Below, in pieces: positions 5,941 to 58,207 of a stretch of 64,000 nucleotides of DNA (its first letter is position 1; each line of letters opens with the position of its first letter). Origin of the DNA: Gekko japonicus (taxonomy: Eukaryota); assembly GCF_001447785.1 (NCBI RefSeq), contig NW_015170912.1, forward strand, positions 186,001 to 250,000, in the 5' to 3' direction. Below the pieces are notes generated by a model. The model was given only the letters and a program-made list of their open reading frames with translations. It made no database searches and was not told where the DNA came from. The translations under genes were made by a program, and so were the position numbers.

Positions 5941-7482
5941 AGATTACTTCATCATAAATACAAAATAGTTAAGTGTCTTTAAAATTATTTCACTTTATCT
6001 TGATAAAATTATATTCCTTTTACAGATCTGTACAATAAGACTAGAAATGCACCTCATATACAATAAGATTATAAGCTTGGATCCACTGGGCCATTTCCAT
6101 GGATGGAATGATTTTTGACAGCAGAGCACAAATTTTTCATTCAAGGGGCATTTTGTGCTTCAGTAAGAGGGGGGAGGTGAGAAAGTCACACTCTATGGGG
6201 AATTGTTCTGCCCACAAAATACTCTGGCGAATCCAAACCTCTGCCTACAAGGGACCCAGAGTATATGTTCTAATAGTTCTGTCTTCCCGCCCCCCCCAAC
6301 CACATATAGGTTATCCAAAGTTGATAAGTTAACGCAGTTCGGTAGAAAATACATTAAACATGTACCAATACAGATGGATGCTGACTTTTGTTTTAGAGTA
6401 GAGACTCAATGCCCAGGGTTCCCCCCCGGAATTTCTAGGAGAAACCACATATTGAAAGGGTGCTACTAAATCCTTGCCTGTACCTGGTAATAGAATAGAT
6501 ATTGTAATTGTAGAGAGAATGGACAGGAAAGAACATTTGGCCCTTTATTAACAAGGAAAAGACTGCACAGATAGCATCATCTGGCTTTCTGTTCAGGCCT
6601 GACTTTCTAACCCAGGGCTTCAACTGCTGTGACTGGGTGTCAAGTGATATGTCACTCTGTCAGATCACACAGAGAGGCAGTGGCTCTTCCCGGATTAGGA
6701 CTCTGCCACATGGCCCCTGTGAAAAGATTTCTAAGAAGTGTCAGCACTGACTGTCCACTACTTAAACCTTATGCTAAAAGGTCTTAGACATCTCAGTCAA
6801 AAGGTATTGTTGTAAATACGGGGACAAAGCTGGTAAATTCTGGCCAGTGGGATTTTAATGGAGGTGAGCTGGTCTCAGATAAATAAATGGGTCGACTAAA
6901 GCTCTTCCATGGAAATATGACAGCCATTCCATACTGCTCCTTAAATACTAAAATATGGGGAGGAAATCTTAGTTGGCTAATGAGGTCAAATATGTCACTG
7001 CTCCTGTGCAGTATTGCCTTTCAAAGTAAGTGCTTCTGATGTTCTATTAAAAACAAGTATCTCTCAACAGTTAGAATACTTATTGGCCTGTGATTCCTTT
7101 TTTAAATATAGCAATGGAACCTTCCTATTGTATTTTACATCCCCCTGAATTTACTACTGGTTTGATAAGGGATATGAAATTATTCTAGTGTCTTGTAGAA
7201 ACTGCACGTCCAAAGCTACTGAAGTGCGTAAGAGAGACTGTGCTGTAAATCCAGAAGTCTGTGGTTCAGATCTGATCCCTGCCATGAATTCACTAAGTAA
7301 TTTTAAGTGAGACACTCCCACCCCACCCTCAGACAAAACATCTGCAATGTGGGGATGTTGCTGGCACCGTTGTACAGATTACTGAAACAGTGGTTTGGAT
7401 CTTGCCTAAAAGTTCTGTACCTAACCTAAATGGGGGATTTCCACCAATTCCCCTTCCCACAGTTCTCCAACTCCATCCAAAC

Positions 7483-7909
7483 CAGAGGTCATTTCGGGGG
7501 GGATCGCGGGGGATCGCAGTTCCCCCGGGTGAGGTACGGGGGGCAGGGCACATGACGAAGCCCCGCCCCCTGCTTCCGGCTGCCCCGCTTCCGGCCCTCA
7601 TTCAGCCAGGAGGAGGCAGGAGAAGAGGGAGGGTAAGTTGCTTCCTCCCTGCCTCTCCCCACCCCTGCCTGCCTGGGACCAGGGAGGGCCTTTGCGGGGC
7701 TTCCTTGCACTCCTGCCGGCCTTGCAGGTCCACCGCCGGGCCCCTCATGGAGCTCGGCAATGGAGCTGCAAGGCCGGCGGCGGCCGGGACAGTTGGGGGC
7801 GGGGTGTGTGGCCTTATGACACTCTTCCGGTGATGTCAGGGGGTGTGGCATATGCTAATGAGTTATGCTAATGAGTTCCCTTAGCTCTTTTTCTACGAAA
7901 CGACCCCTG
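7483..7909 (-). mobile_element. hAT MITE with 8-bp TSD
   Basis: Imperfect TIRs CAGAGGTCATTTCG / CGAAACGACCCCTG; TSD ATCCAAAC on both sides; highly similar inverted copy at 50970-51376. Confidence 0.85.
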
Positions 7910-9104: not shown

Positions 9105-9475
9105 ATAAAATTCATCATATTCTCTGCCACTATGATCCATGAAATCTATCCTTGATGACAAAGAATTTGCTAAATTAGGTCTGGGCAAAATGCACCAGCC
9201 TGTTGGTGAGTCCAAATGTGAGATTCATTATATGGCACTACAAGCAGAAATCAAATCCTCTTCAGAAAGACTCCATCCATGTCTCTGATGATTCCAGTAG
9301 TACAGACGGATAGGTCAAATTTTATTAAATATAGAAAAAGTTATGCTTGAAGGGCTTCACCATGAGTTTAACAAGCTCATAAAACTGAGGCGTTCCTCAC
9401 TGTTTGTTTCATTTCACTTTCAGGTACCAGTTTGGAATCCCCCTTTTGGTCTGTATGTTTAATGGTACAATTCTT

Positions 9476-10229
9476 TTTTTTTTTATAACTTTATTTTCAT
9501 TTTCATAAAATACAACAATCCACAATCCATACGTCTTTCTTATTGCTATGGAGCCCTATCCACGTGCATTAATCCAATCCTGTATGTTTAATGGTACAAT
9601 TCTTTTTTTTTTTATAACTTTATTTTCATTTTCATAAAATACAACAATCCACAATCCATACGTCTTTCTTATTAAGGAGCCCTATCCACGTGCATTAATC
9701 CAATCATATATGAAGGATAAGGCTTAATTTGTCCATCTCTGCCAAATCAAGTATTTTATGTATTAATTCTTCTTGTTTAGGGATATACTCTTGATTCCAA
9801 AACCTAGCTAACAGCATTCTTGCAAAAGTGAGTATATATATGATCATATATTTATCTTTTAACTTGTAATTAACCGGCAACATATTCAATAGTACAATTT
9901 TCGGAGTCAGATCAATTTTAACACTAGTTATTCCCAAGATTATTCTTTGTATCATCTTCCAATAGTCCTGTACTTTTGTACATCGCCACCACATATGAAA
10001 GAAAGTACCGACATTATTATTGCATTTCCAGCAGTTTCTGGGGAGAGACGGGTTACATTTAGCTAACCTTTCTGGAGACCAGTACCATCTGTGGTATACT
10101 TTATATATATTTTCCTTATAATTCGTACTTCTTGTGTAGTTTAACGCTTTCCAGGTTTTTTTCCAGCCTTCTACCGTTATGTTATGCCCAATATCTTTTA
10201 CCCAGCTTTCCATTACCTTATTAGGGTAA
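9476..10229 (-). mobile_element. 5'-truncated L1 (ORF2 C-terminal cysteine-rich domain) with duplicated 3' junction
   Basis: ORF HRWYWSPERL...CWKCNNNVGTFFHMWWRC; polyA (T run); 16-bp TSD TAATGGTACAATTCTT at 9460, 9589 and 10230. Confidence 0.85.
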
Positions 10230-11029
10230 TAATGGTACAATTCTTATTGTTTTTGGTTGTATAACTACAGGGGTGATGTTTAAAGATATATCAAAGACCA
10301 CATCTGATTTTTCTTGTTGCACCTATATCCATGCTTTTTCATGAAAAGGATAGTCACATCAACTGGTGCTCAAATACACTACAATATTTGCAGTTTCATC
10401 TTTTGTATTCAATTTAATCTCTCATCTTTTTTATCACAGACAAAATGTCTGTGAAGGTACTAGAAATCTTGAATCCCATATCTCTTTGCTCCTCTTCAAA
10501 ACCCAAAATGATGCTTCCTTTGTACCTACTGGATACTTCCATAACAATTTTGTAACAAGTTTTTATAGCACCACAATGACAACAATTTTTATTTTTGATT
10601 GATCGTGACAAGCAACGGCACAACTCTTTTCTCCAGTTATTTTAATGCCTTTAGTTTTCAGGATGTGTACAAAAAAACTTGAACTTTTAGAGCAAATTGA
10701 CCTTTTTTAAAAAAAATAAGTCCTGAGTCTTTTTTTATAAGTTTATTTGTACGTTTTCCAGAAGTCCTGAGTCTTGATGGTGTCCCTAAAGCTCATATAT
10801 GAAATTGTTTCTCCTTTAACTAAAACATGTGACTGTTTCTCTAAAATCAGGTTTCTTACCAGAAGATTCAAATGCTGCCAAATATAAAGATTACTTTTAA
10901 AAAGAGATCTATAAGGAATTCAGGAAGTCACAGACAAATCAACCCAGTTTCTGCAATAGATAACACATATGGAATGCAAAAAGGGGTGTGTGTGTTAAGG
11001 TTAATGTTAAAGAGCTCCACCAACACCAA

Positions 11030-12804: not shown

Positions 12805-15800
12805 CTATAAATCAGCATGACACCGTGAAAGGGAATCTGCTAGAGTGTTATCCCTCCCTCTAATATGGGTAACTTCGAAAGACATATCTTGCAGAGATAG
12901 TGCCCACCTCAAGATTCTAGAGTTGGTATCCTTCATTCTGTGTATGAATGTTATTGGGCTATGATCTGTCTCTAGACAAAAATGTGTTCCCCTGAGATAT
13001 GTCTTCAATTTGTTTAGCCCCCACACTACCCCCAGAGCTTCTTGCTCCACGACACTATACTTTTGCTCTCTAGGGAGTAACTTTCGACTCAGATAGATCA
13101 CTGGATGGAAACATCCATCGGACTCTTTTTGCATCAGGACGGCCCCTATGCCCGTTCTGCTAGCATCGGTCCTGACCAAGAAAGGCTTAGTATAGTCAGG
13201 TGGCCTAAGGATAGGTGCTTGAACAAGTTTCTCTTTTAGAAGTTCAAAAGCCCGTTGACATTCTGATGACCATGGTACTTTTGCGGGAACGTTTTTCTTA
13301 CATAGGTCAGTTAAGACCGCTGCTAGTCCACTAAAATTAGGGATGAATCTTCTATAAAACCCACAGGCCCCTAGGAAACTCAAAATCTGCTTCTTTGTCA
13401 TGGGAGTGGGCCAGTTAACGATTGCATCTATCTTTACCGCATGTGGTGAAATTTTCCCACCCCCTATTTGGTGGCCCAGGTATATAACAGAAGAGTTGGC
13501 AACTTGACACTTTGATGGCTTTATGGTCAAACCGGCATCTTGAATTCTCTGAAGCACAGTTCTCAGATGTTGTAGATGTTCCTGCCAGTTTGAACTGATG
13601 ACTGCAATATCGTCCTGATATGCTACTGCGTAGTCCAGTCCTCGAAGTATCTTATCCATCAGCCTTTGGAAAGCTTTGCTAGCTGACTTCACTCCAAATG
13701 GGAGTACATTAAAACAATACTGACCCATAAAACAAGAGAAGGAACTTCTTTCTTTAGCTCTCTCTGTAAGTGGCACTTGCCAGTATCCTGAAGTGAGGTC
13801 AAAAGTGGAGATGTATGTTGCACTAGCCAGTCTTTCTATCACTTCCTCAATGTATGGTGAAGGGTACTGGTCCATCTTACTTATCTTGTTGAGTTTTCTA
13901 TAATCAACACACATGCGATATTGAGTTGGGTCATCTTCATTCAACTTCTTCTTGGTAACAATGACAAGATTGCTAGACCACTCAGAAGTGCATGGCTCTA
14001 TTACTCCCATTTGTAGCATTTTTTCTATTTCTGTCTTGATTATTTCCCTCATAGGCCCCCTCACAGGATACGGATTGGACTTAACTGGTGGATGGTCTCC
14101 TGTGTCTATATCATGGACAACTAGGGAGGTTCTTCCAGGACAGTTGGTAAATGTGCTTTCAAATTTTTTCAACAGCTCCCTTAGTTGTTCTTGCTGTTGG
14201 CATGACAGGGCCTCATTGATGGGGATCTCAGACATTCCAGTTGGCCTTTCTGCTTCTGCAAGAAGATCAGGAACATCAAAGTCCTCTTCTGGCCAGGCCT
14301 CAATTGACATTTGCTGCATTTGACGGGCAACAAATTTTTTTAAGCGGTTAATGTGGGCTACTAGAAGGCCTCTCTCTGGATCTTTAATCTCATAGTTTCC
14401 ATCTCCAAGGCTCTGCATAACTTCGAAAGGTCCCGTCCAATGTACATCTAACTTTCCCACACTCCCAGGGTTCAACAATAGGGCCCACTCTCCCGTCTTC
14501 AGGGTTCTAGATTTAGTTGTTTTGTCAAAATTTGTTTTTTGTTTTTCCCTGGTTTCTGTGAGGGCTTGCTGAGCAGTCTGTTGTATACTTTGTAAAGTCT
14601 GCTGTAGATTGGTGAAATATTCTGATGTCGACTGTGGTACTTCAGGAGCCCAGACTCCTTCCCAGCTTGCCCTCAGTAACTCAATGATTCCTGGCAGTTT
14701 CCTGCCAAACACAAGTTCATTGGGCGTGAAGCCGCCAAGCGAAGGATGCACAGCATCTCTGTACGCACTAACCACAAATGGAACCGCCTCATCCCAATTT
14801 CCGTGATGTTCCAAGCAGAAGGCTTTTAGCATCCGTGTCAGAGTTCCTCCCCACTTTTCTATCTGCCCATGAGATTGTGGGTGATAGGCTACACTGAGTT
14901 GTTGAGTCACTCCTGCCAAATCGTAGAGTTTTTGCATAAGGTTATTTAGATGATCTATCACTGACAATAACTCTCGGAAAACCAAAATTTGCAAAAAACT
15001 CTAACAATGTTCTAGCGACATTTGTTGCAGTAACAGTCCTTAGTGGAATAGCTGCTGGAAAACAAGTTGCCCGGTCTATGATAACAAGAATGAATTTCTT
15101 TCCTGACCTTGTAGGGGGGAAGGGTCCCTGAATGTCCATCTGTATTTCTGCAAAAGGTACTTGCACGATTGGGATCCTTCCTAGTGGCACCTTTACATGA
15201 TCAGATGAGTATCCTACCTTCTGGCATACTTCGCAGGAATTAACATAATCTTTAATGTCTTTACTTATTCCAGGCCAATAAAACGCCGCAGTCACCTTGG
15301 CAAGGGTTCTTTTGAACCCAAGATGCCCAGACAATGGCAGGTCATGGGCAGATCGTAAAACTTCTCCCCTGAAGAGTTTAGGGACCACTAATTGCTTCAC
15401 TGACTGTGACATGGCTGTCTTTCCTTTTGGTAGGTATTCTCTATAAAGGAAACCATTATGCCAATAAATCCTACTGTTTCCAGGTTTCTCCAATGAGGGA
15501 CTCATTTTTCCAGCTGCCTCTCTACATGACTGTAAATCTGGCGATGTCTCTAACAATTCCTTAAAGACTTTAGAATCAGTTTTCATGGATAGCGTCCCAC
15601 TTCCAGTTATAGGAGGAAATTGAACATCATGAGCTAGAGGCTGTAAGACTCCTCCCCCTGTTCCTTGCTCTTCCTCTTCCTCTTCCTGCTGTTGGACTCC
15701 CAGTGGGGGGCTTTCTTTCTGCTGTCCTATTGGCAGCATCTTTCTAGCTCTTGCTGTACTCCTGGTCAGTACTGGAAACTGGTTAATGCAACCTTTTGCT

Positions 15801-16270
15801 TTTAGCATTTTAAAATAAACATCCATCCCAAGTAAAAAGGCGGGATCATCTCCCTGATGTACCAATAATGGGATGGTGTCGGTCCAATTCTCTATAGTAA
15901 CCTTAGCATAGGTAACAGGTTGCTCTTTGGGCTGGGCATCATACGTACGAATATCTACTTTCCCATCTGGTTGTAACCCTAATTCCTGGAAGGTAGTTTC
16001 ACAAATGGATGACATGTCCGCCCCACTATCCCATGTAGCTTTGAGGAGGGCCCTATCTTGTATTCTCACATAAACTGTCCTTTTTTGAGAACACCACTCC
16101 GCTTGTTCTTGACTAATGTAGCATGAAATGGACCTTTTAGGGACAGAAGTCAGATTTATGCGATTTATTCTGGCTCCATTTCTTAGGCCCTGACTCTGTT
16201 GTTGGTTATTAAATTGTACTTCTCTAGCAGGCCAATTTTTACCCCGCCCAGAGTTTTGCATACATACCAT
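12805..16270 (-). pseudogene. Gypsy pol polyprotein PR-INT-RT-RH, frameshifted in the integrase core (~14945-14960)
   Basis: Two long ORFs (14942-16270 and 12805-14994) join at SDR../NNLMQ; otherwise no stops. Confidence 0.88.
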
Positions 16271-17170
16271 CAGAGTCTGATGTACTTCTTTGGCTGGAGC
16301 AGCTGATGCTGTATCTTGAAGCTATATTTGTTGTTGATCTTGACTTGCTGACGACGTTACTGCTTGAGTTGTAATTAGTTGAACATTTGGTTGCTGTGAT
16401 ACATTTTTCTCCACTAGTCTCGGGCATTGATTTCGAATGTGGCCTCGTTGCTTACAGAAGTAACAGACTGGTGGCGCTGATGTATAGCTGGTAGACCCTC
16501 TATGTTCCTGAATACGATCTCTTACTTGATTTGGATGGCGTTGCCTAAAAGTTGGAGCTGGTTGTCTTTGCTGATATTCCCCAGTCCTTGGATACCTTGG
16601 AATCCGATGTGACTGGTCTCCCATAGGCTTGGCACAGGGCATCTCCATCAGGCGGCCTTCTGCAGGTATTGCAAAAGCTGGGCAACCCTCAATGGTTGGT
16701 GCCAGTGTCCTCCTTCCACCATAGGGGTGCAACAAGCTAGTGAGGGGGCTGGGCAGACAAGGCTGGGTGGACAGACTGGAGGTGCCCTGGCTAGGAAGCT
16801 GGGCAGGGCTGGTGGGAGGGCAGGCTGGGGAAAACAGGCCATGAAAGACACCCCCCCATGCAGCTGCAGACAGGTCCCATGGGCCAGGGACAATTCACCA
16901 GCAGCCAGGATCCAAGGAGAGAAATGAGTTGGGGTAGGGGAGAGAGAAAGCAAGAAATAGTGATGGGATGGGGAGGAAGAGAGAGAGAGAAAGAGACAAT
17001 AGATGTGGGGGGATGGAGAAAGAGAAAAACAGAGGGAGACAAAGTAAGAGAAGGAGTGGGGGAAGAGAAGAAGAGTAAGACAGAAAAGGGGTGGTGAGAG
17101 AGGGGAATAAGCAAAGGTGGGGGGATGGGAGGGCTACTTCTGCACTTGTATATTCTAATAGCCAAGTTGG

Positions 17171-18581: not shown

Positions 18582-20263
18582 TAATGTGTAGTTAAGGCAA
18601 AACATTGCCTAGCCTTTGTTATTTTTAAATCCTTCTAGTCTGTGCTAAGTTCTATACTGAATAAACTTATTCTGGTTTTCTAGCTTGTCTGGTTTGATAT
18701 GTAACTGAATCCCAAGCCTAGATCTTGTAGCCTAACCCGCTGACCATATACACTACCTAGGTAAAAGTTTGCACCTCTGAGTAGAGTTGCTAATGTGTAA
18801 AACCCACATGCCAACTGAGATTCTGGGATCTCTAACCTCAGGCTGGTGAGGGATTAAGTAGAGATCCTGGTGGCTATAGTGTTCTGAAATCCAGAGAGCC
18901 TACCTTTCTGGGTTATTGTGTAATGTATTGAGCCAGTGTAGAGTTTTCCCCCTCATCCCTGGACTGGCCTGGGGGGGCAGAATCTATACAGAACACTTGT
19001 AGCTTTATTTAGCTTCCCTCAGTGGATATTGCTAGGCAACCACAAGAGGCTTGGATTCTCTCAGTAAAAGGCAGGGGGAGGGTGCCTTTTTCAGAGATAT
19101 TTTGGGCTTTGAGGGAGGACTTATTGGGGCAAAGCCTGGCAGGAACCACCAGACAACTTGCTACCACCCAACTTTCATGACTTACCTAGGCCTGACTGCT
19201 TGCTACTGTTCAGCAGCAGCCCCGGCACAAACATCACTGTGGTGTAGCGGTTAGAGCTTCAGACTAGGACCTTGAATTCCCATTATGCTGTGGAAACTCA
19301 CTGGCTGATCCTGAACCAGCTCCACATGCTCAGCCTAATATACCTTACAGGCAGTGGGGAATTGCCATTGAGAGCACCTGGATGGCTCCTGGTGGGCCAA
19401 TGGCCTCCCACCCATACCCGGGCTGGCCAGCTCTCTGACGGAAGGGCTGAACCTGACCCACCCAAGCCCCATACAAGGTGGCAGAGATGGCTCTCAGCCA
19501 GCCTGAGGCAAGGTAGGGAGACAGAGCCCGGGTCCCCAGGCCCCAAGAAGCAAGGCAGCGGAGGAGGTGGCGACACCCGACTCAGACTGCTTGAGGCAAG
19601 GCAGATGTTGGTACACCACCAACCCTCATGCAACCCAGACTCTGGCACCCAGCCCAGTCAAGCCCTGTGCAAGGCAATACAGATGGTGGCACCTGGGCCA
19701 AACTCTGCACTAGGTGAGGCAGACAGTAGTGCCCAGCCTGGTCAAGTCCCACATGAGGCAAGGCAGACCATGCCCACCTGGCTGAGCCCTGCATGATGCA
19801 AGGCAGACAGAGGCGTCTGGCTGAGCTCTGCACAAGGTGAGGTAAGGTGAAGAAGATGGCCTGTGCGAGGTGAGGCCAGGCAGACAGCACTGTCCAGCAC
19901 AGCCAAGCACCATGTGAGTGAGGCAGATAGCAGTGCCTGGCCCAGCCAAGCTCCATGCAAGGACTATAGTTTTCCTAGGTAGAGGGTGCCAGGGTAGAGA
20001 AAGTTGGAAAAGAGAGGATGGACAGGAGATAAAGATAGGTTGGTTGTTGGCAGATGGGAATGAGAGAAGGAGGCAGGAAAGGGGGAGAGGGGAAATAAGA
20101 TTTACTCTGCAGATCCTTTCAGGTTAACACTAGTAAATCTATATCACCAGCAATTATTCAGAAAGATTCACCGTGATATTGTAAAAGAATTCATTGACGT
20201 ACTGATATATATTTTTGCATTTTGGAGTATACTCCAAAATCAGCATTTTCATTCACTATATTT

Positions 20264-20640
20264 GGCCCCGTTCACACAGAGCATTTGCCGCGCTAAAGAG
20301 ACGGATGATAGGCGGATTTTCCAGGTGCGATCACACTGCAACATCTGGGAAGCGTAGTGCTCCCGTGGCTAACCCGTGGCGTCCCGCCGACGATGCGCGT
20401 TGAAAAACTAGTACCTCCAAGGTACTAGTAAACGTTTGCCATGGGCTGCCTCCAGACGCCCGTGGTGTGATCGCGCCGGCGCGCGGCATTCCCCTCCGGT
20501 CCCTTGTTTACCTGCTGGCACCTAGGGAAGGACCGGTGGTGTGCCACCGGCGTGTCTGATCGCGTAATCGTGGATCTAACTGCACCAGGGCAATTAGCCA
20601 CGCCTCCCCCCCACAATATCCGGCCCGTGTGACCGGGGCC
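20264..20640. mobile_element. PIF/Harbinger-like MITE
   Basis: TIRs GGCCCCGTTCACAC / GTGTGACCGGGGCC; central inverted repeat CTAGTACC-TCCAA-GGTACTAG; CpG-rich, suggesting it is young. Confidence 0.75.
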
Positions 20641-43479: not shown

Positions 43480-46037
43480 GGCATTTTAGACCCACAAATA
43501 ATTTCTTTGCTGCCACAATTATCCTCTCCTTTTTGTAGCCACAATTCCAATAGCAGAATATCAAAAGAGAAAGAGAGAGTAAAAGAGAGCAATTCTAAAC
43601 ACAAGCTGCATCCACATAATGAGGGCTTTCTGTATTGCTTTCAACATGGTGAAAGATAAGGGGAGAAGAAATTACTGTGACGGGAGAAAAAGTCGAACAA
43701 AGAAGGGCAACACTGTCTACATATATCTGGGAGAGAGTTTGTTTTAATTCTGCTCTTCCAACGCAGAGGGTAGAAAGCAGTGACAGTAAAAAGGGGGCTG
43801 AGAATGATATGAGTCTCTTTCGAAATTTGCTGGGGGGGATAGTATTACTGTGAACCTGTTATAAGGTTATTCCAGGCCACTTGCCTGGCAACAGAAGTAG
43901 AATCCTGTTGCTACAAGCCCTGCCCAGGCAGCATGCTTTTCAGGCCAGTCAGGCAGCAGAAGGCCTCAGGTTTTGGCTTTGTACCCATTCAGATGAAGTC
44001 AGCCTGCTTCATAAGGCCAATTCTAAAATACAAGTTAGAGATCTACAGGGCAGCTCAATGGAAGTAAAGTCAGATAAATAAGCATCCCTGCCTCTAGGAA
44101 ATGAAGCCCCTCCCCTTCAGTCACCTCCATCCCTGAAAAGGGATGACCAGGTACCATGAGGAATATGCCTCCTGTACTTTTAACAATTGTGGAGAACAGA
44201 AGGTATTACCTCTGCATGACATGTGGTAGCTGCATTTCCTACAGAGCTATTCCCTAATGTAGAAATGTTGGCCATGATCAAATTGCTAAAAGTAACCACA
44301 TGCAATAGACTTCAATATCTGTGTACCATTTCAGTATCTACAACTTTCCTCAGCTCTGCATCACCTATCCAAATTCCCCCTCCTGTACAACTTTTAAAGC
44401 ACAGAAGCTAGTTCTCTGCTTGGTTAATTCCTCACATCTATCTCCATCCTTTCTCCAAGGACAGTTTCTGGCAGTGGTGGTTGGTGGTGGAGGGAAAGCA
44501 AACTCTGTAGCTGTTTCCCCTTGAGCTGGTGGCTAGAGTCAGGGCAGCCTTTGTAAAAATGTCTGATATTATGACAGACTTGAATAAACAGAAAAGAAAC
44601 AAAATCACGTCTAGGGGTGGGGCTGTTAATGAAGAATTTAAGGAAGAACACTTAAAAAGTGAGGCTATGTCTTCTGATTCAGCAAAAGCATATTTATGTT
44701 TACATTTTATTTCCCATGAGGTAAAGTCCTATGGAGAATTCAATGTAACATAAACAGATATAATGTATAGTGTGTACAGTTAGGCAAGATTGGCAATTAT
44801 TTGGGACCTGACCCCAAAGATGTTTGGAGGATGGGGATGGACAATATTTCTAGATGTTTTCCCCCACTAACATAAGCACAGGGCTCTAACTACTAAACTA
44901 GTTTTCCATGGCACCTTTTCAAAATAGACTTACACAATCTGTCCCATTCTTTATCTGCATATCTGTAGTCTGCCAGCTTTGTGTTGAATTTTTGATGTTG
45001 AGTGATATATATAAATAGACATATATTGGCTCTTTTTCTTTTATTAGAGTACCAGAGTATTGAGTGAGAAGGCTTGCAGTGAATGTGAATGAGGCGTTTA
45101 CAGAGTCAACCGTTAACCCTAAGAGCAGGCGTCTTCTGTTTTCAGTAATGATGTGGTCATCACAGTAATTGATAGGGATCCTATGTTTATGTGAAAGTAA
45201 TTGTATCTCTGTTATACACTAGTCCTTTTTCTGAAGAAGAAACTCGAAATGATTATTAAATCTGGAGTCTTCGTCTTGGATCAATTCCTGGACCTGGGAC
45301 TGGCATTTTTTGAACTGGAAAAAAATGGTGTTTGAAGTTGTTACATAGTGGAATGTTGATGTGTCTCAAATGTATGGAAGTGTGCCCTTCAAATGCTAAA
45401 TAGTTTTATATAGAATTTCATATTTCTGTAATTGTATGGTGATGACTCTTGGATGGTATATAGAGATATAATATGACAAGTGTGATCCTGTAATGTCATA
45501 TTGAAAAATACACTTATGATTTTGAGAAAATAATATACAGAATACTTAGTTTTACAGATCTTTATTAGTGACTACTTCTGATGGATTATGGGTGGAGCTG
45601 GGAGGCAAATCAATAGCGAAACCTCTCTGCTGAGCTAGCTTGGCTGACACTGCGCTTGCAAGAATGTGGATTTATTGGTGAGACCAGCAAAATACTGAAT
45701 GCTTGGCATCAGGATCCCTATGCGGGTCTTGTTTGAAGCGTTCAAAGTGAAAACTGTAACAACTTTTAGAGCACAACTTACTGGGTGTACTGTGGACTGG
45801 AGCAGTTGCTATTTTTGCTGCATCTGGATCAAGCTGTAGTTTAGCAAGTGAAACTTTTCCCGACATAGAGGTAAAATGCATCTCTGTATGTCAGACTGCT
45901 GTTAAAGGCACAGGAACATACTGTGCGCAGTATGACTTACTCCCAAGTAAGTGAGTGTATAACTTTATTACTGCAGTAATACTCTGTCTTTCTCCCTGAT
46001 GGGAACAGCAGTAAGTCTCTGCAGCAACATCTTAAAT

Positions 46038-49607: not shown

Positions 49608-55467
<5,860 letters not shown>

Positions 55468-55785: not shown

Positions 55786-55964
55786 TATTAAGTCAAAAAT
55801 CCAATTTCCCCCCTTCTTCCTATAATGATATTTTTTTTGTACAGGCAATTTAGAGGACTGTAGCATTTTGAACACGAAGAAATTTCACATTTAAACAAAA
55901 ACAGCCAAAAAAGCTCAACTTTAGAAACATGCTGATGGCTTTGGAACTATCTGAAATCAATGTT

Positions 55965-57517
55965 GAAAGAGATCTTGGGGTTATAAGCAGATAGCTCAAT
56001 GAAAATGTCAGCCCATTTCACAGCAGTGAAAAGGGCAAATTCCATGCTGGGGATTAGTAGGAAAGCGATTAGGAATAAATGGGCAAATATTGTAATGCCC
56101 TTGTACAGAGCCATGAAGCTGCCTCATTTTGAATACTTTGTACAGATCTTGTTGCTGTATCTCAAAAAGAACATTGCAGAGCTGGAAAAAATATAGAAGA
56201 AGGCAACCAAGATGATCCAAGAGGTTGGAGCGCTTTTTGCTATGAGGAAAGGCCAGAGAGTCTGGGATTTCTAAGTTTAGAGAGAAGAAGGCTAGGGAGG
56301 GGACATGATAAAGGTTTATAAAATTATGCAGGGGGTGGAGAAAGTGGACAAAGGGAGATTTTTCTCCCTTTCCCATAATACTAGAACTCAGAGCACCCAA
56401 TGAAGTTGATGGGCGGTAGTTTGTGACAGAAAAAAGCCCTTATTTTCTCAATGAGTAATTAAATTATGGAATTCTCTGCCAGTGAAGGTAGTGATGGCCA
56501 TGTGCATAGATGGTTTTAAAAGGGGATTAAGCAGATTCATGGAGGATAGGCCTATTAGTGCCTATTAGGCATGGCTAGTAAGGGGAGCCACCATGTAAAC
56601 ATCTGAATACCAGTACTAGAAGCCAAAAAAGGAGGGGGGGAAGCCAGTGTACAATGCAGGAAACAAAAAAGAATAACACACAAGCAAGTAAGCAAGTATA
56701 TAATGATCAAATAAGCATAACAGCAAGTATAATATAAATCAAATAAACATAACAAGTATGATATAAATCAATAGGCCAAAGTGCAATAATAAATCATAAT
56801 AGAAGCAAGTCACAGTCTTTCCATGTGTCTACTCCAGCATAGAAGCAATATCAAAGTCCAAATTGGAGTGCAATTCATCAAATTTTCTGAGCCATAAAAA
56901 GCCGACGCGTAATCCAGATGCCTGTTGCCGCATTTCGATTAATTCTTATTCAAGCATGGCTGTAATGGGACCCAGTCTCAAAAGCTGGCATACCCCCACC
57001 TGGACCAGGGGGCTGGCAACTCTATGCAAAAAGTGTAACCAGCCCCCCATAAAAGCTCTCCATTACAGCCATGCTTGAATAAGAATTAATCGAAATGCGG
57101 CAACAGGCATCCGGATTACGCGGCGGCTTTTTATGGCTCAGAAAATTTGATGAATTGCACTCCAATTTGGACTTTGATATTGCTTCTATGCTGGAGTAGA
57201 CACATGGAAAGACTGTGACTTGCTTCTATTATGATTTATTATTGCACTTTGGCCTATTGATTTATATCATACTTGTTATGTTTATTTGATTTATATTATA
57301 CTTGCTGTTATGCTTATTTGATCATTATATACTTGCTTACTTGCTTGTGCGTTATTATTTTTTGCCAGTGGTGTTCTTTTTTGTTTCCTACCAGTACTAG
57401 AAGACAACATCAGGGGGGGAGGTCTTGGCCTCTGTGCTCTGACTGCTGGCCCTCCAGTGCAACAGGATGCTGGCCTAGATGGACTGGTCTGATCCATCAG
57501 GGCATTTCTTATGTTCT
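55965..57517 (+). mobile_element. CR1 LINE 3' fragment interrupted by the insertion at 56623-57388
   Basis: AVKRANSMLGI..IVMPLYRAM..PHFEYFVQ..ELEK; the 3' UTR resumes at 57404 and ends CTGATCCATCAGGGCATTTCTTATGTTCT. Confidence 0.85.
56623..57388. repeat. TSD-flanked insertion: ~310-bp inverted repeat (56658-56968 / 57060-57389) with a locally templated spacer; possibly Penelope-derived
   Basis: 15-bp direct repeat TACCAGTACTAGAAG at 56608 and 57389; near-identical inverted arms; 56992-57063 is the reverse complement of 57850-57921. Confidence 0.9.
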
Positions 57518-57888
57518 AGAGATGGTCCACAAATTCAATTACTTTTTTGGAGCAGCAAAATGCAGAAGTCAGATTTTCCAACATAAACAGCTATGCTATC
57601 CACAATGGGACTTTGACTCTCTTATAATTCAAATCCTGCTAAAAATGAAAGTTTAATGGCATCCAATGCAGAGATGACTTAAGTCTGGAATAATGGAATG
57701 TAGGCAGCAAGATTTTTTGAGTGCTTGGGGTCTCTGAATTTATTAAACTCCTGGGAACTTTTCAGTAGCTTATGGATGTGATATGTACCAAATTGGAGCA
57801 GCTGGACCCTACGGTAGATTTACTCTATGGAGCTGGACTATTAACATCCATGGAGAGCTTTTATGGGGGGCTGGTTACACTTTTTGCA

Positions 57889-58207
57889 TAGAATTGCCAG
57901 CCCCCTGGTCCAGGTGGGGGTTCCCCCGCTTTTGTAGGCCCCTCCCTGCCTGCAAATGCCCCGGAAAGTGACGTGATGACGTCACCCGAAAGTGACATAA
58001 TCACACCACCAACATCACATGGCAATGCTCTAGTTTTGGGGCAAAACTCTATGGTAAATTTGGGCTCAAAACATAGAGCTTTGCCCAAAAACTAGAGCAT
58101 TGTTGTGTGATGTCGGCAATGTGATGACGTCACTTCTGGGTGACGTCATCACTCACACGTGGCAGAAGATCCCCCTGCTGAGAAGAAGGTAGGATCTGGC
58201 AACCCTA
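57889..58207. mobile_element. hAT MITE (TAGGGTTGCCA family)
   Basis: TAGAATTGCCAG...CTGGCAACCCTA ends; TSD TTTTTGCA / TTGTTGCA; internal TGACGTCA repeats. Confidence 0.8.

Follow-up and report, generated by a model that had tools for sequence, protein, structure and literature searches.

A probable Penelope-like head-to-head insertion in Gekko japonicus whose centre is an inverted copy of flanking DNA

The locus and the architecture of the insert

The stretch of DNA analysed here, called the window, is 64,000 nt long, has repeat types that would suit squamate genomic DNA and carries a mitochondrial-carrier gene at 51537-55467 (Pfam Mito_carr PF00153, E 6e-40), which we take to encode an ADP/ATP translocase. 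About 0.8 kb beyond the AATAAA of this gene (55780) lies a 766-nt insert (56623-57388), the subject of this report. On the minus strand at 52263-52619, two units that Rfam scores as tRNA (47 and 43 bits) follow each other in tandem. They resemble each other at 80%, have related pieces at ~2.2 kb and ~61.1 kb and are probably a tRNA-derived SINE in an intron. Further away, the minus strand at 12805-16321 encodes the pol of an LTR retrotransposon in two long frames free of stops, of 459 and 731 aa, in which domains of protease, integrase, reverse transcriptase (RT) and RNase H are recognised; pieces of the integrase flank the RT/RNase H part on both sides, which may reflect a rearrangement or a mis-assembly. 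At 9451-9712 an L1-like 3' end is duplicated in tandem together with its A-tract (136 nt, 96%), beside a frame (9704-10243) that has no Pfam match and is presumably an ORF2-like C-terminus. A 428-nt sequence that contains a palindrome occurs twice (89%), at 7482-7909 and 50970-51377, the second copy adjoining a CR1-like 3' end. Finally, a perfect 32-nt inverted pair (1600-1631 and 1910-1941) encloses ~280 nt with three short direct repeats, 1454-1604 matches 20261-20419 at 80%, and the region possibly holds another insertion or a local inversion.

The features of the insert and of its surroundings are collected in Table 1. The target is presumably an old CR1-like 3' end, and the insert is enclosed by a 15-mer repeated without a difference (15/15). 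In both CR1-like paralogues compared within the window the position of the 15-mer is single and the two halves of the split repeat run in register (2/2), so that the 15-mer is a true target-site duplication (TSD); the initial annotation, which had described a CR1 3' end split by a 766-bp insert with a 15-bp repeat, was right in this respect. Neither outer end of the insert bears a poly(A). The insert is built of two inverted arms, 56664-56968 and 57060-57364, that align over 305 nt with four mismatches (56671, 56678, 56905 and 56916). As the mismatch at 56671 falls inside a stutter, three clean substitutions remain between the arms, two of them at CpG; the same annotation had counted about three substitutions, two at CpG, whereas its "short indel" turns out to be the 19-nt extra piece of the right arm. 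At 56916 the right arm retains the letter of the repeat family, the arms having changed independently since. The right copy fails to reach the outer end of the left copy by exactly 35 nt. The window contains no second copy of the arm elsewhere. The copy in the insert comprises ~35 nt upstream of a hammerhead-like motif and has no long reading frame; the translation DWVPLQPCLNKN (with its stop) at the inner end was considered as the end of an ORF and dropped as too short. The insert codes for nothing: it is a scar and not a functional unit, and it implies no host function.

Table 1. Features of the insert, its target and the donor of its centre (window coordinates)
Positions	Strand	Feature	Evidence
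55950..56622 (start approximate)	+	CR1-like 3' end, 5' part; insertion target	high family depth; in register with paralogues at ~4.2 kb and ~51.4 kb
56608..56622	+	left TSD copy, 15 nt	single copy in CR1-like paralogues
56623..56657	-	left-only 35-nt tail, family sequence	summed depth 38,894 (X1), 46,670 (X2), bin 56617-56659
56658..56991	-	left copy of element end; element sense on minus strand	arm comparison
56925..56957	-	minimal-hammerhead-like motif, left copy; 4-bp helix I, 3-bp helix II, extra base before G10.1, GAAA; decayed	sequence inspection
56969..56991	-	family sequence absent from right copy	depth 63,150 (X1), 65,769 (X2), bin 56961-57003
56979..56991	+	imperfect homology between inner end of left copy and DNA just past donor (57922-57934)	contains 7-nt exact run
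56992..57063	-	72-nt loop, inverted templated copy of 57850-57921	71/72; single-copy depth at 57047-57063; diagnostic letter of terminal inverted repeat (TIR)
57060..57063	+	CCAT, 4-nt microhomology common to loop and right copy	sequence comparison
57060..57389	+	right copy of element end, without tail	arm comparison
57071..57103	+	hammerhead-like motif, right copy; identical to left	no mismatch between arms here
57355..57373	+	19-nt stutter in right copy: repeated T-tract and 7-mer also in left tail (56643-56649)	arm comparison
57389..57403	+	right TSD copy; first T common to right arm copy	exact repeat
57404..57519	+	remaining CR1-like 3' end	paralogue comparison
57850..57921	+	loop donor: 39 nt unique DNA and first 33 nt of MITE	alignment to loop
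57889..58207	.	palindromic MITE with terminal inverted repeats; 8-bp flanking repeat, 7/8	window comparison

Between the arms lies a loop that is the reverse complement of DNA downstream of the target, and its donor runs from unique DNA into a MITE that we take to be hAT-like. Seven of the seven other pattern-matched TIR copies in the window are uniform; the donor deviates from them at two letters, the loop deviates at one of these two, and this private letter of the donor is found in none of the seven. The loop is therefore derived from this very hAT-like copy, and the single mismatch between loop and donor would most likely have arisen later, in the donor. The two joints differ in quality: the right one is a perfect terminal 4-mer, while the homology at the left one ends in mismatches. 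Beyond this end of the loop lies a 7-nt exact in-register match (56979-56985 against 57928-57934), absent from the initial annotation; such a run is seen at 14 of 12,388 control positions, a count that includes the donor. What had been reported previously, namely a loop of 72 nt with one mismatch joined to the right arm by CCAT, a donor spanning the edge between unique DNA and a hAT element, an origin of the loop at this locus and copying from nearby genomic DNA, is all borne out by the sequence. The stated distance of 0.8 kb is that from the loop; measured from the target in pre-insertion coordinates, the donor lies 447-518 nt away.

Family depth, age and alleles in public runs

Contigs and reads of four of 24 public runs were compared, at 85% likeness, with 55800-57063, that is with the left arm and the loop, a range in which the right junction and the joint of an empty site could not appear. 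Over 56617-57003 the summed contig depth is 21,772-163,145 in run X1 and 17,472-200,728 in run X2, against 66 and 92 in unique flank; summed contig depth is not a copy number and serves to mark an abundant family, which includes both 56623-56657 and 56969-56991. The tail reaches ~0.6-0.7 of the depth of the next bin once the TSD is allowed for, a dip that could be an edge effect. Within the loop, the MITE part has depths of 4,873 (X1) and 3,633 (X2) and the unique part (57047-57063) depths of 79 and 135. This drop to near single-copy level, compared with 17,000-200,000 over the arm, means that the loop is not family sequence; the initial annotation had named a loop lying within the consensus of the arm family as a finding that would speak against its view, and the depths point the other way.

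A 149-nt contig of X2 spans the left junction (56515-56660) with no difference and at full depth (85.5 against 92.2 in the flank). It argues against an assembler error and not for any population frequency, as X2 may be the window's own sample. The loop joints are unbridged among the contigs listed (24 of 21,090 pieces and 15 of 299 joints). In run X19, from organism B, the depth is 0.5-3.6 over 56746-56831 against 10 in the flank, and a 243-nt contig fits 56473-56613 and then diverges, a pattern compatible with an empty site in organism B but not proof of it. Over 56875-57003, X19 holds a related family that covers the motif region only (depth 500-2,000), is nearly absent over the T-rich part and has a fixed different letter at 56896; the motif region thus looks more conserved than the remainder of the repeat. 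Reads of the RNA run X21 fall on both strands of the arm (mean depth per bin 14-34 against 16-45) and are uninformative for this locus.

The divergence of the arms (3/297), of the loop (1/72) and of the TSD (0/15) is consistent with a single age of about 1%. Between X1 and the window the flank differs at 3 of 381 positions and between organism B and the window at 22 of 302, so the divergence within the insert resembles the former and is far below the latter. Several letters common to the two arms are uncommon in the family, the alternative letter appearing in raw RNA reads in 43/43 cases at 56805, 47/48 at 56932, 53/54 at 56939, 29/35 at 56925 and 12/13 at 56671. Taken over 369 nt, the left arm departs from the family majority at six or more sites, five of which are common to the right arm; these differences come from 40 of 254 rows, and the distance to the family is accordingly a lower bound.

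Identity of the repeat and the hammerhead-like motif

Insertions of Penelope-like elements (PLEs) often consist of a copy with an adjacent inverted, 5'-truncated copy and a tail of 30-40 bp, often at one end only (Craig et al., PMC8557442). The same layout, with TSDs of 8-10 bp, is described by Arkhipova et al. (PMC3846280), in whose account the head-to-head form is the commonest arrangement. The insert shares these features, as it combines a head-to-head inverted 5'-truncated copy, a one-sided 35-nt tail, a TSD and no poly(A). According to the legend of Fig. 2 in PMC8557442, Penelope/Poseidon, Naiad and Neptune elements are laid out like the insert. The insert also resembles Pen2a_Av of Adineta vaga, where head-to-head truncated copies, a TSD, a hammerhead-like motif and the absence of poly(A) are combined with a one-sided tail of 31 bp (PMC3846280). 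The insert has no ORF, whereas endonuclease-bearing PLEs encode a telomerase-like RT and a GIY-YIG endonuclease in one frame; their Neptune and Poseidon clades are told apart by RT phylogeny and a linker zinc finger. Since a head-to-head pair within one TSD is the typical layout of PLEs, the hairpin itself is ordinary.

The layout is complemented by the motif near the inner end of each copy. Minimal hammerheads of PLEs have a short helix I, an extra base between positions 9 and 10.1, a G10.1-C11.1 pair and a palindromic 15.2-16.2 pair, and a U3-A8 variant exists among them (Cervera and De la Pena, PMC4209133). The motif displays all four features of this layout once three family-majority letters are counted, and it starts with U3 as in the variant. 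The majority letters at 56939, 56932 and 56925 each restore a lost pair, in helix I, in helix II and at 15.2-16.2. On the other hand, the core of this copy is non-canonical (U3-U8, C16.1 and G17), and no majority change is seen there among 40 of 254 rows. The hammerhead-like remnant proposed in the initial annotation has gained support from the three restored pairs, the departures at core positions 8, 16.1 and 17 of this copy notwithstanding. An alternative register with a GUC triplet can be drawn at 56906-56904. Rfam returned 15 matches near the insert up to E 10, none of them a hammerhead, and over the whole window no hammerhead and two tRNA-like matches. Four stretches folded no better than their shuffles (z -0.03 to 0.79), and a scan of metagenome contigs for the motif gave 0 loci. 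A relaxed hammerhead descriptor, devised after the motif had been seen, matched none of 2000 shuffled arms and one other site of the window (45231-45265), which is regarded as chance.

Judged from layout and motif, the repeat is very probably the end of a Penelope-like element. Two other types of inverted insertion were rejected: an L1 twin-primed inversion, owing to the missing poly(A) and the 305-nt overlap of the arms, and a fold-back DNA transposon or MITE, owing to the 35-nt offset at the left end and the locus-specific loop. A T-rich body resembles the 3' UTR of a LINE, which counts for the view that the repeat is instead an L1/Tx1-type 3' end, or a non-autonomous family, that underwent a complex inversion. 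This view, which also draws on the imperfect core of the hammerhead and on a PLE assignment read from the sequence of a copy without an ORF, is very unlikely: poly(A) is missing at both outer ends, the tail and the motif suit PLEs, and the arms overlap fully, whereas the two pieces of a twin-primed L1 meet at internal breakpoints within ~10 bp (PMC11702581). The Penelope-type origin suggested from the outset is thereby strengthened by tail, layout and motif, and the stand-alone FoSTeS/MMBIR-like event offered beside it becomes the weaker option.

Formation of the inverted joint

The hairpin, the tail and the TSD are already known, and so are local templated fillers in the case of R2, L1 and Pol theta; the unusual part of the insert is a flank-copied loop with a diagnostic hAT-like letter and with microhomology at both joints. 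The centres of published PLE insertions are direct overlaps or short palindromes in the parts of the literature considered here, compared with 72 nt of target-locus DNA in the insert, and the host-DNA spacers of Pen1_Av sit between direct pLTRs and not at an inverted joint (PMC3846280). A search of mostly open-access literature, largely by titles and the beginnings of abstracts and with supplements excluded, turned up no PLE described as having a centre templated by its flank. As such a centre cannot belong to a pre-formed RNA or to a free cDNA, the arms of this copy were likely joined in inverted order at the target itself, and chromosomal DNA up to ~0.5 kb away was likely open for copying when it formed. 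For the inverted repeats of PLEs, self-priming, perhaps on an antisense template, has been proposed (PMC3846280). The three leading explanations considered below all place the joint at the target locus, which is at odds with a hairpin produced beforehand, away from the target, by self-priming.

The reading that we favour, with a confidence just above even for the whole chain of steps, is that what is likely a PLE was reverse transcribed from both nicked ends and that the right cDNA then snapped back onto the flank to which it was attached. An endonuclease would nick the two strands 15 nt apart, the distance preserved in the TSD. Reverse transcription would be primed by both 3' ends close to the end of the element, with slight homology at most. 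One reaction would begin at the outer start and include the tail, the other at the inner start and lack it, and both would copy the RNA of one source copy, as the layout and the biochemistry of a related protein suggest. The cDNAs, whose arms and tail are family sequence, would halt early, and their stops lie 23 nt apart. The right cDNA, which in this reading is the minus strand attached to the downstream flank, would then anneal by its final four bases to a site 447 nt along the strand it belongs to, made accessible by resection, and would be extended by 72-85 nt. Of this step the copy and the microhomology are observed; resection would have to be assumed, and the direction of synthesis is not readable from the sequence. 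Within a further 13 nt the copy would reach the 7-nt match, by which the new end would anneal to the left cDNA before the gap is closed in a Pol-theta-type reaction; the match is in the sequence, whereas the enzymes and the order of events belong to the model. A downstream inverted donor is the product expected from an in-cis snap-back of the right end via a perfect terminal 4-mer.

Several known systems lend plausibility to these steps. Purified PAc, the protein of a Poseidon element from Anolis carolinensis, can cut and extend each of the two strands, has a dimer as its predicted form and starts reverse transcription without primer homology at two sites, one on either side of the tail; hammerhead cleavage is dispensable for insertion (Frangieh et al., PMC11167929). 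Two outward 3' ends in a clean TSD, one with the tail and one without it, follow directly from this biochemistry. Judged by the context of the motif and without an alignment, PAc seemingly represents a family different from that of the insert; the main text of PMC11167929 is silent on how inner ends are joined and leaves the late steps unvalidated. In L1 twin priming, a second reverse transcription from the reciprocal end keeps a discrete TSD of 12-18 bp, and a clean TSD has been argued to reflect a protected second end (PMC11702581); by analogy, the clean 15-bp TSD of the insert would fit such protection. Complex L1 insertions resemble the insert further in that templated genomic DNA occurs and opposite pieces are end-joined, and the RT itself may copy DNA (PMC11702581). 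The pieces of twin-primed L1s, in contrast, barely overlap and end in poly(A), while both arms of the insert span the same 305 nt. At the snap-back 5' junctions of R2/PRINT, the 3' end of the cDNA primes synthesis before the junction forms, mostly on cDNA and at a lower frequency on target DNA close by (PMC11371274), although this engineered, site-specific system makes a single cDNA and differs from the insert by having no second outward 3' end, no tail and no 15-bp TSD. Lastly, Pol-theta end joining leaves inverted copies of nearby DNA with microhomologies of 2-6 bp at integration junctions (PMC5508229). The insert combines the features of such templated insertions, namely an inverted filler from nearby DNA (71/72) and short joint homologies of 4 nt and 7 nt. 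For Pol theta, both the 72 nt of the filler and the 0.45-0.5 kb to its source would be rather long.

The main result against two-ended reverse transcription is the sharing of family-rare letters by both arms, as two reactions would need one unusual source copy, and one template copied twice is simpler. This observation is explained at once if the same element was reverse transcribed a single time, the left cDNA jumping downstream via the 7-nt match, copying 72 nt, folding back via the 4-mer and then copying itself to just short of the tail, with one stutter, before being joined to the far end. Such a course, which is rather unlikely, agrees with the self-priming proposed for inverted PLE junctions (PMC3846280), with the R2 snap-back being commoner on cDNA than on flanking DNA (PMC11371274) and with the 7-mer of the left tail in the stutter. 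It must, however, invade a strand that resection would remove and prime from an end with internal mismatches, its stop has to coincide with the tail-length offset, and the far end must survive ~380 nt of DNA synthesis and then be joined by 1 nt. A history in two steps, with an older solo copy to which loop and right arm were later added by a FoSTeS/MMBIR event, or with an older pair homogenised by hairpin-driven conversion, would explain why the left arm has at least six differences from the family, five of them common to the right arm, whereas only three sites separate the two arms. Among the changes common to both is one CpG decay, the kind of signature left in genomic DNA. This history is nonetheless improbable: the later event would have to land precisely where the inner end of the element faces an undamaged TSD and recreate the usual layout of PLEs by chance, and the loop and the arms are equally young. 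An artefact of assembly or library, such as a fold-back chimera, is exceedingly improbable. Short-read assemblies are troubled by inverted repeats (PMC8557442), the window has three gaps and bridging was found at the left junction only, yet the arms differ at three sites, with the family letter at 56916 in the right one, the TSD is in register with the paralogues, the loop departs from the donor toward the majority letter of the TIRs and the X2 contig crosses the left junction at full depth.

Two-ended reverse transcription followed by snap-back also raises the question as to whether the head-to-head form of PLEs is generally built on the chromosome, by reverse transcription on two strands and repair-type joining of the cDNAs instead of self-priming on a free or antisense template, with flank-copied centres as a recurrent footprint. 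We regard this generalisation as possible but doubtful. A single event is an anecdote, of modest interest as a testable mechanistic hint; as the family is abundant, one can count how often such fillers occur, on which side and in which orientation, and flank-copied centres counted across it would, if the generalisation is true, settle the origin of the inverted repeats of PLEs.
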